Shown here: positions 55,574 through 62,814 of the stretch, piece by piece | How positions within the stretch are numbered: the stretch's first letter is position 1 | Layout: each line of letters begins with the position of its first letter | Source: Octopus vulgaris | Taxonomy: Eukaryota | Assembly (NCBI GenBank): GCA_951406725.2 | Contig: OX597815.1 | Span: forward strand, 146,816,001-146,880,000 | Reading direction: 5' to 3' | DNA: 64,000 nucleotides | Program-made: the position numbers and the translations under genes | Notes under the pieces: generated by a model | What the model was told of the DNA's origin: nothing | Databases searched by the model: none | Seen by the model: only the letters and a program-made list of their open reading frames with translations

Positions 55574-55623
<50 letters not shown>

Positions 55624-55627
55624 TGTG

Positions 55628-55649
55628 TACAGTGCTCAGGTGCACTACA
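55628..55649 (-). other. LINE 3' UTR stem-loop (probable RT recognition signal)
   Basis: Sense TGTAGTGC-ACCTGA-GCACTGTA: 8-bp stem (two G-U pairs) with a 6-nt loop immediately before the tail. Confidence 0.7.
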
Positions 55650-55672
55650 ACTCATCTAAAGTGTATATATAA

Positions 55673-58438
55673 TCAGGTGTAGTTTCGGCGGATTTCGGAA
55701 AGCATGAGGGCCTTAAAAGATGCAGTGTCATGGCAGTCAACAACTGACGCAGGCAGTTTATTCCATGCTTCAGCAATTCTGAGCGTGAAAAAATGTTTCC
55801 GAAAGTCATGGGAGCTGTATTGTTTTCTGACTTTGTAGGCATGTCCACGTGTGTTAGACACATGGAGATCAAAAAGGTGTTCAGTGTTGTTGTTGGTGAG
55901 GTGGTTGATAACTTTGTGGGTGTTTACCAAGTCCGTCGCCAAACGCCGGAGCTTCAGTGAATCCATGCCCAGGGAAACAAGGCGCTCAGAATATGGTAGG
56001 TGTCTGATGGAGGGTATGCGTTTGGTTGCACGTCTCTGGACAGATTCCAGGAGGTCAATGTTCTGTGCAAGATAGGGGTTCCAAACTGATGATGCGAATT
56101 CCAAGTGTGGTCGTACCATAGCTGTATACAGTTTTAAATAGATGGCTGGAGAGCGGCTAACAAAAGACCTGCTGAGTGATGCCAAGACACCCTCGGCCTT
56201 CCTGACAATCTTAGAGATATGCTTTGACCAACGCAAATCACTGCTGACAGTGATGCCTAGGTCACGCTCACAAGAGGATTTCTTGATATCAGTGTTGTGG
56301 AGGGAGTATGTGAACGCAGGGTTTTTTCTCCCAAAATGCATGGTGGTACACTTGTCCACAGCCAGTTTCAGTTGCCAGTCTGTGATCCATTGCTGCATTG
56401 TGTCTAGGTCTGATTGCAGGAAAGAGTTGTAGACATCAGGATCTGTCCTCTTGATTTCAAGGTACAGCTTGATGTCGTCTGCATATTTCAATACTGTGGC
56501 ATTCTTTAAATTGGCATCTATGTCGTTAATGTATGCCACAAACAAGAGGGGACCAAGGACAGATCCCTGTGGTACACCCGATGACATCTCATATGGTGTA
56601 GAGTGCTGTCCTAGAACTGTGACTACCTCCTTTCGGCTGAGGATGAAGGATTTCAACCAGTTAAAAAGGTCATCCCCCACACCCATTGCAGAGAGTTTCA
56701 CCATAAGCCTTTTGTGTGGCACAGAGTTGAAAGCCTTAGCAAAGTCAAGGTAGACAACATCCACCCATGAGCCACTGTCAGTAATCTGAGTAATGTCCTC
56801 AAGGAACTCGACAAGCTGGTCACTGCAGCTGGAGTTAGGGACAAATCCATATTGTGAGGGTCGGATGAGACTGTGAGAGCTCCAGAAGTTCCAGAGTGTT
56901 TCTCTGACACACGATTCCATCAGTTTTGCAATACAGCTAGTGAGACTGACTGGGCGATAGTTGACAGGTGATGTGCGGTCGCCCTTTTTGAACAGAGGAA
57001 TGACACTGGCAGTTTTCCACTGCTCCGGAGTAGCACCATTGTTGAGACAGTACTGGAAGAAAATAGAAAGCTGGTGTAAAAGGAAGTGCCTGCCACGTTT
57101 GAGAAGCAGGTATGTAACTCCATCGAGACCAGGGGAGGCATAGTTGTGCTTATTTTGAAGGTGACGTCGCAGCATTGCAGGTGTAAATTCCATAGTTGTT
57201 ATGGAGTTTGCTGTTAGTGATGGTGAAGATGGTACATTTTGACTTTCAACAGTGAATATGTTTGCATAGCACTCGGCAATGAGTTCTGCGCATTCCTTGG
57301 GGTCGTCAGTGATCTGGTTTGTGTGAGGGTTGCGAAGAGGGCCCACTGGAGAGTGAGGTCTCTGCTTTGAGTGCACATATTTCCAGAAAACCTTGCTGTC
57401 AGGATTGGCTGCTATGCACTGTTCAAATTCAAGCACTGCTTTTTTTGTCACTTGCTTGAGATGGTTGGAGGATTTATTCCGCTTCTTCCTGTTGGTGTCT
57501 GATTTATGCAACCTGTATTCCCGTTCAGCAGTCCGACGTTCCCTCCTGGCAAGTCGGACCGCTGAAGTTTCCCAAATTGCCCTTTTGGGGCGGTTCTTCT
57601 TTTTTTGTTTACGTGGCACTGATGCTGCACATGCTGCCCATATTGAGTCCAGGATACTCTGGAGTATAGTATTCACATCTCCAGAGTTGTAGAATTCACG
57701 CCAGTTTGGGTGCTGTAGTTCAGTGTGGTACAGGTTCCAATCTGCTCTCTTCCAATCGAAGGAAGCAGATTGGAGATGGTTCAGGTTTTTGTTGCCCGCA
57801 AGAGCCAGATTGGCGATGATCATAGCATGATCAGAGTCACCTAGAGGTTCCTCCGTAGTGCAATTGATAACTGCTTCAGGAGTTGTGGTGAAGAGCAGGT
57901 CCAAGGTGTTGTCGCCTCTTGTTGGAGAGGTGACTACTTGTGACCAGTTTGAGTCCAGCACAAGCTCAACAAAATCGTTTGCACTCTGTGGCCAATGGAA
58001 GGTCTCCCAATCGATCTCAGGATGATTGAAATCGCCTGCAATAAACACATAAGTGGCTGTTTTCCTGGCAGCAGCTCGGAGGACATTGCAAAGCTGTGTG
58101 TCCCGATGGTAACTTGGGGGACGATAAACAACGCCAAGCAGGAGTGTTGACATGGTCATACGCACGTCACAGAAAAAAACTTCTTCTTGTGATTCGTTCA
58201 AATCGGCACAAGGAATTACCAAAAAATTTGAACGAACGTAGACCATCACACCACCACCACGGCGGTTAGTGCGGTCCTTACGGAAGAGGTTGTACCCCGT
58301 AATGTTGAAAACCCCATCACAGAGTAAGGAATGCGCCCATGTTTCCGTGACAGTGATGAAGTCAGGGTCAACACTTCTGACGTAGGCGTTGAACAAATGT
58401 ATTTTGTTGCATAAACTGCGAGCATTTAAGGACAACAA
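55673..58438 (-). CDS. LINE ORF2: APE endonuclease + reverse transcriptase (CR1 clade); frame open from 58522 with no initiator ATG
   Basis: 921 aa uninterrupted: LNARS, VTETW, VVYRPP, AGDFN, TLDL, SDH (APE); NYRPVSLTS, QYGF, YLDFAKAFNSV, GVPQGSVLGPLLF, KYADDIK, ERDLG (RT); HLEFASSVWNP, LESVQRRATK, RGH, WNKLP (CR1 C-terminus). Confidence 0.97.
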   Translation of the reverse strand: MLSLNARSLCNKIHLFNAYVRSVDPDFITVTETWAHSLLCDGVFNITGYNLFRKDRTNRRGGGVMVYVRSNFLVIPCADLNESQEEVFFCDVRMTMSTLLLGVVYRPPSYHRDTQLCNVLRAAARKTATYVFIAGDFNHPEIDWETFHWPQSANDFVELVLDSNWSQVVTSPTRGDNTLDLLFTTTPEAVINCTTEEPLGDSDHAMIIANLALAGNKNLNHLQSASFDWKRADWNLYHTELQHPNWREFYNSGDVNTILQSILDSIWAACAASVPRKQKKKNRPKRAIWETSAVRLARRERRTAEREYRLHKSDTNRKKRNKSSNHLKQVTKKAVLEFEQCIAANPDSKVFWKYVHSKQRPHSPVGPLRNPHTNQITDDPKECAELIAECYANIFTVESQNVPSSPSLTANSITTMEFTPAMLRRHLQNKHNYASPGLDGVTYLLLKRGRHFLLHQLSIFFQYCLNNGATPEQWKTASVIPLFKKGDRTSPVNYRPVSLTSCIAKLMESCVRETLWNFWSSHSLIRPSQYGFVPNSSCSDQLVEFLEDITQITDSGSWVDVVYLDFAKAFNSVPHKRLMVKLSAMGVGDDLFNWLKSFILSRKEVVTVLGQHSTPYEMSSGVPQGSVLGPLLFVAYINDIDANLKNATVLKYADDIKLYLEIKRTDPDVYNSFLQSDLDTMQQWITDWQLKLAVDKCTTMHFGRKNPAFTYSLHNTDIKKSSCERDLGITVSSDLRWSKHISKIVRKAEGVLASLSRSFVSRSPAIYLKLYTAMVRPHLEFASSVWNPYLAQNIDLLESVQRRATKRIPSIRHLPYSERLVSLGMDSLKLRRLATDLVNTHKVINHLTNNNTEHLFDLHVSNTRGHAYKVRKQYSSHDFRKHFFTLRIAEAWNKLPASVVDCHDTASFKALMLSEIRRNYT

Positions 58439-58494
58439 TTTGTACCCTGCTCGCAGTTTATGATGGTGTGTAGAGGATGGCAGGTTGTTCTGGC

Positions 58495-58935
58495 TTAGTT
58501 TCCCTGAGTTGCTGTAGTATTTTTAGTTATTGTGGGTAGAGAGCACTCAGACCAGCTGGTATCTCTCTTCCACGTTTCAGCAGTCTTGACAAATCTCCAG
58601 ATTTGTCCATCTTCCCGAAGACTGAAGCTTTCCTGTAGAGCTGAGTTCCTATTCAGGGAAGCCACTACACGTAGCTTCGGACGTACATCGGACGGTAAGC
58701 CTGGGCGTGTTCGGAAGGTGGTCCGATTTTCCCGCCCAGCTTTAACTGAGGCCAGATGGTAAGAGGTTGCCTCAGTGGGGTCCGTAAAAGACAACTTGAT
58801 GAGCCTAGGTTTTGGGCCAGGTCGTCCAAGGCGGATAGCACCCGTTGGGGGAACGCAGCCTAGGTCTTTGGCTGAGTTGGCAGCAAAAGCCTGAAGATCA
58901 GCCATGTCTTCAAAAGCCTGAAGATCAGCCATGTC
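58495..58935 (-). CDS. 5'-truncated LINE ORF1 (C-terminal part)
   Basis: Contains AIRLGRPGPKPRLIKLSF, typical of CR1/L2 ORF1 RRM-like regions, and ends QGN*. The ATG at 58959 probably lies in flanking DNA. Confidence 0.8.
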   Translation of the reverse strand, partial: DMADLQAFEDMADLQAFAANSAKDLGCVPPTGAIRLGRPGPKPRLIKLSFTDPTEATSYHLASVKAGRENRTTFRTRPGLPSDVRPKLRVVASLNRNSALQESFSLREDGQIWRFVKTAETWKRDTSWSECSLPTITKNTTATQGN

Positions 58936-59416: not shown

Positions 59417-60009
59417 TTCAAGCTGATAATACTTGATGTTGCCGTTTCAGATAATAGACATTTTCGGTGAGTCTCGAAATATCTTCAGTTCGCAGTTTTG
59501 ATCGGCAGCATATTAATGCCGTTTTGAACGGTAGCATATTAATGAAGGTATTCTTTTTGTTTAAGATTTTCAACAATATTACTCCTAATTTAGGTGCGCT
59601 TATCGTCACAAATCGACACTATAAATCCTCTTTAGTCTCGGAGTATTATCCAGGTGTACATCTCCGACGTAACAGTTAAAGGGATGTAGATAAAACTACA
59701 TTTACACTCTCTGTAAATGGAAGAGGATTCTATTTGGAGGAGACGTTTATCCACATCTAATTGCATCTAATTGCATTGTATATTATTGTCATATGTCCAA
59801 AGTCATATTTGAAGGATTATGGAAACGAAGTGAATGCTATTGCTGGTGAGTTGCGATTGCTATTTGGCTATCATGCTGGATATTTTCAGTTGATCTCTGT
59901 ACACTAACAAAAGCCGTATCACTATTCTCCACAATTAGACACGGAGTGTACAAATATTCATGACGCTGATTCATAAACTTGTACTTTTGAGTTCATAATT
60001 CTTCGTATC

Positions 60010-60224
60010 CTTTTCTACTCTAAGAACAAGGCCCGAAATTTTGGTGAGAGGAGCCAGTCGATTAAATCGACTCCAGTACGCAACTGGTATTTAATATATC
60101 GACCCCGAATGGATGAAAGGCAAAGTCGACTCCAGGCGGAATTTCAACTCAGAACCTAAAGACAGACGAAATACCGCTCAGCATTTCTCCCGACGTGCTA
60201 ACGTTTCTGCCAGCTCACCGCCTT
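60010..60224 (-). mobile_element. Family-D SINE (GCCTTGT..TAGAGTAGAAAAG tail variant)
   Basis: Minus-strand head AAGGCGGTGAGCTGGCAGAAACGTTAGCACG; degenerate TSD ATAATTCTTCGTATC / ATATTTCTTCATATC. Confidence 0.9.
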
Positions 60225-62814
60225 TATATTTCTTCATATCATAACACCCAGTATGCACACGTACACATGCGCACGCATGTACGCACGCACGTACGCATGC
60301 ACGCACGCACGCACACACTCACGCACGCACGCACATACAAATATATGTACATATGTATATTTGTCCTTACATACATATGTGTGTCTGTATATCTATGAGC
60401 ATATATATATGTGTGTGTGTGTGTGTATGTATGTGTGTTTGTATGTATGTATGTGTGTTCAGAGAATGAGAAAGGGAATCGGTAGGTAGATAAATAATTA
60501 ATAGCTAGATAAAGTGTACAGAGAGTGATAGGCGACAGAAAAAGAAATTGAAACATTCAGAGAAGCTTTGATAGAATAGAAAAATGTGATTTCTTTCAAC
60601 CACTTAATACATAGTGCGTCTACAATATACAGCACTTCACTGTTGAGAAGCAGACGAAACACCTATGAATTTATCTATTGAGTAACATTCTGTTAAGAAA
60701 TTCATCAAAAGCTGCTTCTCTATCGCAGATATAAAGTCTACTGTAACAATAACTTAGACAATTTTCCTCTGGCTATGAGTTGATTAAATCGCAAGAAACG
60801 AGTGGATCAATTGGTTACCTCACACATGGGAAATATTCAATGAAGATTCACTATCGAAAATTAGATAAATTTATTTTGCGTTCACAACTAACCAATTCTT
60901 ATTTCGATCTGAAACACGCAAATACAATTTGGAGTTTCCTAATGTACTGCGTAGTCATGTAACATCCACCAATTACCGGAGAGCGGGGAGTTATTGATAC
61001 GTTTTTCAGTCTATAATTATTGTTGTTCTTGTTGTTATAGTTTAGCTTCGGGTCAGTTCATATTAGGCAAGGCAATGATTAAACCATGCTAGTCATGACT
61101 ATCTCGCCTTTTTTTCTTTCTTTCTTTGGTCAGACGTAGTGTATAAAGTTTAACGTTATATAAGATATTTCCATTCCTTACAGAAGTTAGAGTGCAAAAT
61201 TTGTGAGTTGTTGGCTGCTATTTATTACAGTAGTTAGTATGGCTACTTAAGGCTACCTTGTATGGTGTTATTATATATCTTTCGTGGTACCGTTCGGTAG
61301 AAATTACAGTTAATTACCGTTAAAATGTAAAAAAATAGACAAAAGAGAAGTTTTCTCTCTCCACACACACACGCACACATGCTCACACGCACATAATACC
61401 CAGAAATGCACACACACACGTTTTCGACATTTAATCTCATTACGTGCAGTATGAAATGCAGTTTATGCGTTTCACATATCGAAAGCGACTAATATAGAAA
61501 TATTCAAATACTTCCAAAGTCTTTGGTGCAGTTGTAACATAGAAGTCACTTCATTTATATATTTTTTTGTAAATAATGTTTGGTATTTCCTAATTAAACA
61601 CACAAATCAGATATTATTTAACCTTGAGCACTGATGATTATAAATGCGAATCAGAATTTTGCATCCAGGCTACATAAGTTTGATATTTTCTGGTTGTTCA
61701 CCACTGATGATCTTTTTTACATGACTTTGGCAAAAGAGATTAACATCTAATGGGTCACTGATATTTACTACAATTACTTCACTTCTTTTGAGACTACTGT
61801 AATTGAATGTAATTTATCTATCACTCCATCAGGAAGATTGTCTCACCCTTCATGTCATCATGCCATAGCATATAATGTGAGTCTTAAACGTAAATTTCAG
61901 CTGATACGTGACATAACTTTTTTCACATTTTCACTTCAAATTTTGAAGTTTAGTCTTCCCTATGGTCACGCTGAATAGGCATAGTACACCCAGAGCCCCT
62001 ATTTAAGTAATTCAGATACCCCACTCATATTATCATATTTACTTTCAAGTACACATGCGATATAACTATATATCCAGCCAAGCACCGGTGTCTTTTTTTT
62101 AAATTTCTAATAGCAGCATTTTGCCAATCAAGTCTACCGAAATTGATTTCGAAAAGACACTGGTCTATAACCTGATTATATATCAGTCTTGCTTCGTATT
62201 TCAAGCACCTCTCTAAATAGTGTTTTAATCAGTCTATCAATCTTTTTAAATGTATAGACCAAAGCCGTCGGAGCTTGGCATGGCACAATGCAGTTAGTAT
62301 CTACGATGAAGACACCTGACTTTACACTTCATATCTTTGTTTCATTTCCTTCAAGAAGTGAGGAGACGTTCGGCGTAGACCTAGGCTCTCTACTCTATTC
62401 AATACCTCATTGTTTTAAGCAGCCCCCGTGCGACTTATACATACATTATAGTTAGGCATGCTATGTAATGAAATATTTTGATACCACATACTTCTTATAG
62501 CAGCCAAATACGAGCTTTGTCTCTGTGGTCTGTACTCAGTGTGGCATTTCTAGCTCAGCATTCATTAATTCCGCAAATGGCTAACTAGATGTTTCCCGCG
62601 TAATCTAAAATTCCACTACCATTCCTATGCGATTTTGTAATGGCGGAGTTTACAGCTTGCGATTTTGTAATGGGGGGTTTTCACTAACGGTGTTATAGTC
62701 TCGAAGACAAGTTTGTATGGTATTCACTCTAAATCCCCTTTCATGCTACAATATTACGATTCTACTGCCCATATATTTTTTTGGACACACAGACATATAT
62801 ATATGCAACTATAA

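Follow-up and report, generated by a model that had tools for sequence, protein, structure and literature searches.

A young CR1-type LINE of Octopus vulgaris probably makes its enzyme by programmed −1 ribosomal frameshifting, which would yield an ORF1-ORF2 fusion like Gag-Pol. The copy studied here lies on the minus strand of a window of 64,000 nucleotides (assembly GCA_951406725.2, contig OX597815.1, positions 146,816,001 to 146,880,000). Its second open reading frame overlaps the first in the −1 frame, no usable AUG precedes the endonuclease core, and the slippery heptamer G_GGA_AAC is conserved together with the stop codon that directly follows it. Because this slip sequence is kept in distant relatives and no start codon lies before the enzyme core, the enzyme is likely an extension of ORF1.

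The coordinates of all features are given in Table 1. Searches of the host genome (assembly 2.8 Gb, 227 contigs) identified the element as a member of a young, high-copy family, here called family A: DNA matches were 99-100% identical in 40 of 40 scored cases, and the whole 949-codon frame is retained in many of the 150 copies scored. The other 39 scored matches all start at 58911. Hence, the window copy is 5'-truncated at this point and carries the last 138 ORF1 codons only. The 175-codon open frame that represents ORF1 in the window is a truncated remnant composed of these 138 LINE codons, a short stub and flanking DNA. In full copies of family A, the ORF1 product is about 404 aa long; its N-terminus is of the Cys/His kind, and it also has a poly-Q tract and a C-terminal domain. 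The stub duplicates sequence just inside the truncation point and possibly reflects a template jump during insertion. The length of the poly-Q/QNQPQPE repeat differs among otherwise near-identical copies (L002-L029).

Table 1 Features of the LINE copy in the window and junction types at metagenome loci
Feature	Position or loci	Strand	Basis
5'-truncated copy of young CR1-type LINE (family A) with (ATT)n tail	55578..58911	-	family matches, tail
949-codon open frame of ORF2 with APE-type endonuclease and RT domains; first ATG at 58246	55673..58522	-	ORF and Pfam
Strong RNA hairpin confined to family A, with a basal stem of 15 bp; begins 35 nt downstream of the heptamer	58410..58462	-	
Linker of 20 codons in the ORF2 frame, heptamer to endonuclease strand 1; predicted disordered	58445..58504	-	pLDDT 42-58, residues 1-20
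In-frame CTG, 10 codons ahead of the NARS Asn, in 5' arm of hairpin; best non-AUG start candidate	58454..58456	-	
ORF1 stop abutting the heptamer 3' (TAA; TAG in L251)	58495..58497	-	directly read
Slippery heptamer G_GGA_AAC in ORF1 frame; final two ORF1 codons	58498..58504	-	directly read
Last 138 ORF1 codons and TAA	58495..58911	-	full copies of family A
24-nt stub, duplicate of sequence just inside the truncation point	58912..58935	-	directly seen
−1 overlap with a correctly framed canonical heptamer	L251, L252/253, L257, L264, L276/278, L308		
G_GAA_AAC	L255/266, L256, L261, L269, L274		
−1 overlap, no site	L297, L310, L325		
Single TGA then CT between in-frame ORF1 and ORF2; mostly no ATG ahead of endonuclease	L258, L259/260, L267/304, L268/282/293/323, L277, L317		

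Hallmarks of the CR1 group are a 3' microsatellite tail, frequent 5' truncation and the lack of an RNase H domain. The element has an (ATT)n tail, at which its 3' boundary was read by eye, and occurs in truncated copies. A Pfam scan of ORF2 found an APE-type endonuclease (PF03372/PF14529) followed by RT (PF00078); the same scan detected no RNase H family in the element and no protease in ORF2, i.e., nothing that would cut a fusion. The assignment is made at the level of the CR1 group, and the tree was built from unnamed endonuclease domains only. The element is similar to the CR1/L2 LINEs with a PHD-type ORF1 (types IIC/III; Metcalfe and Casane 2014, PMC4120745) in having two ORFs, APE and RT domains, a microsatellite tail and a Cys/His N-terminus in ORF1. 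An ORF1 of the CR1/L2 kind carries PHD, with or without a coiled coil and an RRM. No Pfam family scored above threshold in ORF1 itself; in its Atlas neighbours at 0.85-0.90, PHD families are found among 11-43% of members, which serves as a lead only. A SINE-like repeat at approximately 60000-60230 on the minus strand was recognized by eye only.

At the junction, the ORF1 frame reads CAG GGA AAC TAA, and a shift by −1 gives TCA GGG AAA CTA AGC CAG, which is the frame of ORF2. The latter opens at 58522 and runs for 949 codons. The heptamer starts 66 nt ahead of 58438. Position, spacing and frame relation agree in every respect with what the earlier note had claimed from the letters of the window. 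According to that note, GGGAAAC is also the shift site of PEG10 and the poleroviruses. Six LINE ORFs with 3231 codons in all contain 15 canonical heptamers in frame, corresponding to approximately 3% for the 7-codon overlap. A heptamer in a single sequence is modestly above chance and is weak evidence by itself; it gains weight because it is conserved. The arrangement follows the consensus for −1 sites, with X_XXY_YYZ in the zero frame and the second ORF open in −1 (PMC3542737), and a review counts G_GGA_AAC as one of the heptamers on which mammalian ribosomes shift most readily (PMC5009743).

ORF2 had been proposed to lack an ATG until after essential endonuclease motifs, and this holds. The first in-frame ATG (in GGGVM, residue 93) lies past the start of the PF03372 match (residue 31), predicted strand 1 (YKLLSLN) and the conserved Asn and Glu. 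AlphaFold2 modelled the first 250 residues, counted from the heptamer, with a mean pLDDT of 89.6; the first Met of this model is residue 87, past the invariant Asn27 and the near-invariant Glu54. The top Foldseek matches of the model are the L1 and TRAS1 endonucleases; a sequence search against solved structures gave chance hits only. As strand 1, Asn and Glu all precede the first AUG, a start at this codon is predicted from the model to delete part of the catalytic core. In copies with an intact frame, no in-frame ATG was found between the heptamer and the Asn of the NARS motif, and the frame relation is −1 throughout. A script flagged an in-frame ATG ahead of the Asn in 4 of 105 contexts (from a list that was not de-duplicated). 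Two of these trace to foreign flank (L117, L148), one to an A-run that is shifted (L089) and one to a deletion within the heptamer (L250). Creation of an AUG by A-to-I editing was rejected as well because no in-frame ATA is present from the ORF2 opening to the Asn in five representatives. Linker length differs between lineages by multiples of 3.

Conservation of the heptamer among family copies was checked, and it is intact in 103 of the 107 unique family A copies that cover the site; the other 4 carry single-copy changes. In older A subfamilies, the ORF1 tail has insertions of 6, 9 and 18 nt, with further changes on either side of the site and none inside. Since family A copies are young, the figure of 103/107 is weak alone. 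Family B was found in the same genome by searches with distant proteins; queries with P0001, P0002, P0003 and P0005 gave no families there beyond A and B. Its endonuclease is identical to that of family A in 185 of 249 aa (74%). Among 47 unique family B copies, 29 have the intact heptamer, 4 have G_GGA_AAU or G_GGA_AAA, which are still within the slippery consensus, and 14 have an extra G. The extra G places the ORF1 tail in frame with ORF2 and was considered as a lead to a natural fusion. It was rejected: 13 aligned copies have one common 5' junction inside an RTE-type LINE, and the flanks are common on both sides in 6/6 copies fetched with long flanks, so that these copies represent one dead, truncated insertion which was later duplicated with its flanks. 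The unit, several kb long and made of an RTE-type LINE with a nested family B copy (L373-L378), recurs on different chromosomes at 14 or more places and may be a segmental duplication or a large mobile carrier. Subfamily D reads ATG GGA AAC TAA with the ATG in the ORF1 frame; as it was fetched by a pattern containing the heptamer, it was left out of the frequency counts. Family C (L222-L244), a second young CR1-like family of the host, has a −1 overlap that is open for 115-126 codons ahead of the endonuclease, contains no ATG and carries two canonical heptamers, G_GGU_UUU and G_GGU_UUA.

Outside the host, a single scan across metagenome contigs yielded 80 loci, which fall into 42 clusters; their junctions were classified by eye, many loci being degraded copies. 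The nearest locus, L251, is identical in 126 of 247 endonuclease residues (51%). It has a homologous ORF1 C-terminus ending in CAG GGA AAC TAG, 63 nt ahead of the endonuclease, and its ORF2 frame opens 2 codons before the heptamer. Family B and L251 have the same heptamer with an immediate stop, 63-66 nt ahead of the endonuclease. The ORF1 tail ahead of the terminal Gly-Asn is divergent in sequence and length between the lineages. When A, B, D and L251 are anchored at the site, they agree at 9/9 positions of the heptamer-stop block, at 4/45 upstream and at 9/51 downstream. Three-way agreement of A, B and L251 at synonymous positions amounts to 15/60 for fourfold and 22/52 for twofold sites. 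The shift site is conserved past coding needs. A, B and L251 form one clade (support 100/99), which argues for one ancestral site kept under selection and not for three inventions. Their grouping with an eight-family clade of AAC-ending sites has weak support (85/82).

The serious rival among the explanations considered is termination at the ORF1 UAA and non-AUG reinitiation in the ORF2 frame at a CUG that lies ahead of the NARS Asn by 10 codons (−10) or, in family A, by 19 (−19). We regard it as unlikely, though it is the best of the alternatives. The −10 CTG is present in A, old A, B and D, and the −19 CTG of family A has an A at −3 and the strong hairpin 21 nt past its first base. A stem approximately 14 nt downstream is described as boosting non-AUG starts (PMC3542737), and reinitiation is the route used by the LINEs covered in the reviews (PMC2881922, PMC3708506, PMC5009743). 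In addition, L251 carries an in-frame ATG that precedes the Asn by 2 codons, and another in-frame ATG follows the heptamer of L252 by 10 codons. However, B and D have CAG in place of the −19 CTG. As to the −10 CTG, it is part of the hairpin in A, is preceded by a C at −3 in B and D, and is missing in L251, where the ATG falls inside predicted strand 1. Moreover, long-overlap relatives keep the ORF2 frame open for 21-59 codons under ORF1, and reinitiation leaves the invariant 9-nt heptamer-stop block amid variable flanks unexplained.

Described cases of coupled translation in LINEs are similar in part. SART1 and human L1 also have a bicistronic RNA whose ORF2 depends on translation of ORF1, by UAAUG stop-start coupling in SART1 and by AUG-independent reinitiation in human L1, as outlined in PMC3708506, PMC2881922 and PMC10275272. 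SART1 is described there as requiring a downstream structure, and family A has one. In contrast to both, the junction studied here lacks a UAAUG as well as any AUG close to the stop, and its two ORFs overlap in −1 where the slippery site lies. No in-frame ATG was found near the stop in A, B or D, as coupling of the SART1 type would need, and the overlap differs from the non-overlapping ORFs and spacer of L1-type reinitiation. The motif UGGGA, a calicivirus-like reinitiation signal, was also considered and rejected because it occurs in some subfamilies only and lies too near the stop.

We consider it much less probable still that the block is kept for a Gly-Asn C-terminus or as an RNA signal for packaging or termination, with ORF2 translated by a start-codon-independent route. 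ORF1 ends in Gly-Asn in all lineages, and L1 ORF2 is thought to initiate without its AUG (PMC5009743, in its account of L1). Against this, a protein constraint would leave three wobble positions free, all of which are fixed in the slippery state, and Gly is preceded by CAG, TTG or ATG, codons for different residues (Gln, Leu and Met, respectively) that all end in G. Least probable of all is that ORF2 comes from a spliced RNA, or one with an internal start, in which an AUG exon from upstream is connected to an acceptor within the linker: CAG acceptor-like sites are found 54-57 nt past the heptamer start in A, B and D, and a branch-point-like CTAAC (by the general consensus) spans the stop in B, but the acceptor phase is 1 in A and 2 in B and D, which makes splicing unlikely, L251 has no match there, and no clear pyrimidine tract is present. 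Contigs from runs of three organism labels span the junction unchanged and with no joint across it; they may be DNA and thus do not show that splicing is absent. The one long joint that was seen is read as family A sequence aligned to B.

Frameshifting being the preferred reading, the question of a stimulator arises. A stem CCTGC...GCAGG had been put forward as a weak candidate. The stem exists but starts 13 nt downstream, is rivalled by a far stronger hairpin and is unmatched in the sister families. The stronger hairpin has a z of −5.9 (0/200 shuffles as good), with values of −3 to −6 in the A subfamilies and −0.8 in B. Its 15-bp stem is perfect in the youngest subfamily and has an A-C mismatch in older ones. 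As conserved stimulators, both the CCTGC stem and the +35 hairpin were rejected because they are family-specific. Canonical −1 sites have a stimulatory structure 5-9 nt downstream (PMC3542737); no conserved structure was found at this distance, the nearest being at +35 in A and at approximately +11 to +14 in L251, with none of note in B and D. Therefore, the site likely works like a frameshift site but does not qualify as a canonical structure-stimulated cassette, and the efficiency of frameshifting could be low, though a long-range structure or a protein could still act as stimulator. The sole neighbour common to the sites of the lineages is the adjacent stop codon. In pea enation mosaic virus, changing a stop 3 nt downstream of the shift site to sense sharply altered frameshifting (PMC5009743). 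By analogy, slow termination at the ORF1 stop may act as the stimulator.

In the proposed mechanism, a minority of ribosomes would slip back one base at G_GGA_AAC, presumably by tandem slippage of tRNA-Gly and tRNA-Asn, and continue into an ORF1-endonuclease-RT fusion of approximately 1345 aa. Most ribosomes would stop at UAA and release ORF1p. The predicted transframe peptide is ...ATQG(N/K)LSQNNLPSS..., and a flexible 20-residue linker would join the ORF1 part to the endonuclease. The pause would come from the adjacent stop, or from a distant or non-local structure, and not from a classical stem 5-9 nt away. As an outcome, a ratio similar to Gag/Gag-Pol would be expected, and the enzyme would carry an ORF1 module of its own when it enters the ribonucleoprotein.

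Retroviruses, LTR retrotransposons and PEG10 are similar in that an X_XXY_YYZ site ends the structural gene and the enzyme gene lies in −1 (PMC5009743, PMC3542737). Unlike these Gag-Pol systems, the present element is non-LTR, has no Pfam protease and no conserved stem or pseudoknot 5-9 nt on, and its stop abuts the heptamer. Recoding is known in non-LTR elements from the gag frameshift of Drosophila HeT-A and from 2A 'StopGo' sequences in the ORF2 of CR1/L2 elements (PMC5009743, PMC3708506). However, the HeT-A shift occurs within gag of an element with no RT, and 2A separates products, whereas the site described here would join ORF1 to ORF2. Full-text searches, which covered main texts and a minority of the older subscription papers, found no description of a slippery ORF1/ORF2 junction in CR1. 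Frameshifting was reportedly suggested early on for certain LINEs of insects and fungi whose ORFs overlap, so the idea may be in print as speculation. The word 'frameshift' occurs 0 times in the main text of the paper on CR1/L2 elements (PMC4120745) and of a 2026 survey of vertebrate CR1 (PMC13343379).

A −1 overlap was found in 14 metagenome clusters, 6 with a canonical heptamer, 5 with G_GAA_AAC and 3 without a site (Table 1), so that an AAC-ending site is present in 11/14. GGA is a documented variant of XXX (PMC3542737). The five G_GAA_AAC clusters retain this site at a pairwise synonymous identity of 58/159 at fourfold and 100/168 at twofold positions. At L256, L257, L261 and L274, the open ORF2 frame begins only 1-2 codons upstream of the site, with no ATG from there to the endonuclease. 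Of the places where a synonymous T would make a stop in the −1 frame, 86 of 245 carry this T ahead of the sites and 0 of 51 beyond them, a contrast that is partly circular because the sites were chosen inside open frames. As A_AAA_AAC and G_GAA_AAC lie inside ORF1 motifs (KNL and ENF, respectively), their conservation is partly protein-driven.

Other junctions take different forms. Ten clusters have an upstream ORF of 100 codons or more in frame with ORF2, and five of them join the two across UGA-CU. This junction is similar to UGA-CUA, a readthrough motif (PMC3542737), and suggests that the ORFs are fused by a different type of recoding; no notable stem follows the UGA-CU junctions. At least 8 clusters have a +1 overlap of ORF1 and ORF2, and the remainder are too broken or short to call.

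Tentatively, and with clearly less confidence than for the octopus element, we suggest that ORF1-ORF2 fusion by recoding may be a main enzyme-making route in CR1-group LINEs. In that case, the Gag/Gag-Pol logic of retroviruses would extend to LINEs, and the annotated N-terminus of many ORF2 proteins would be wrong. Translation of the second ORF of LINEs is called unclear in the passages of PMC3708506 and PMC5009743 that deal with it, and the worked cases there are reinitiation. If frameshifting is confirmed, the enzyme would be born fused to ORF1p with the protein ratio set by recoding, and a −1 site would function with no classical structure downstream.

Two further observations concern the metagenome loci. 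Several of the loci with a +1 overlap (L272, L273, L281, L288, L303 and relatives) have double ORF1 stops, e.g., CAG TAG TAG. In L270 and L289, 2A-like GDI..NPGP motifs lie upstream of the endonuclease domain, as in described CR1/L2 elements.
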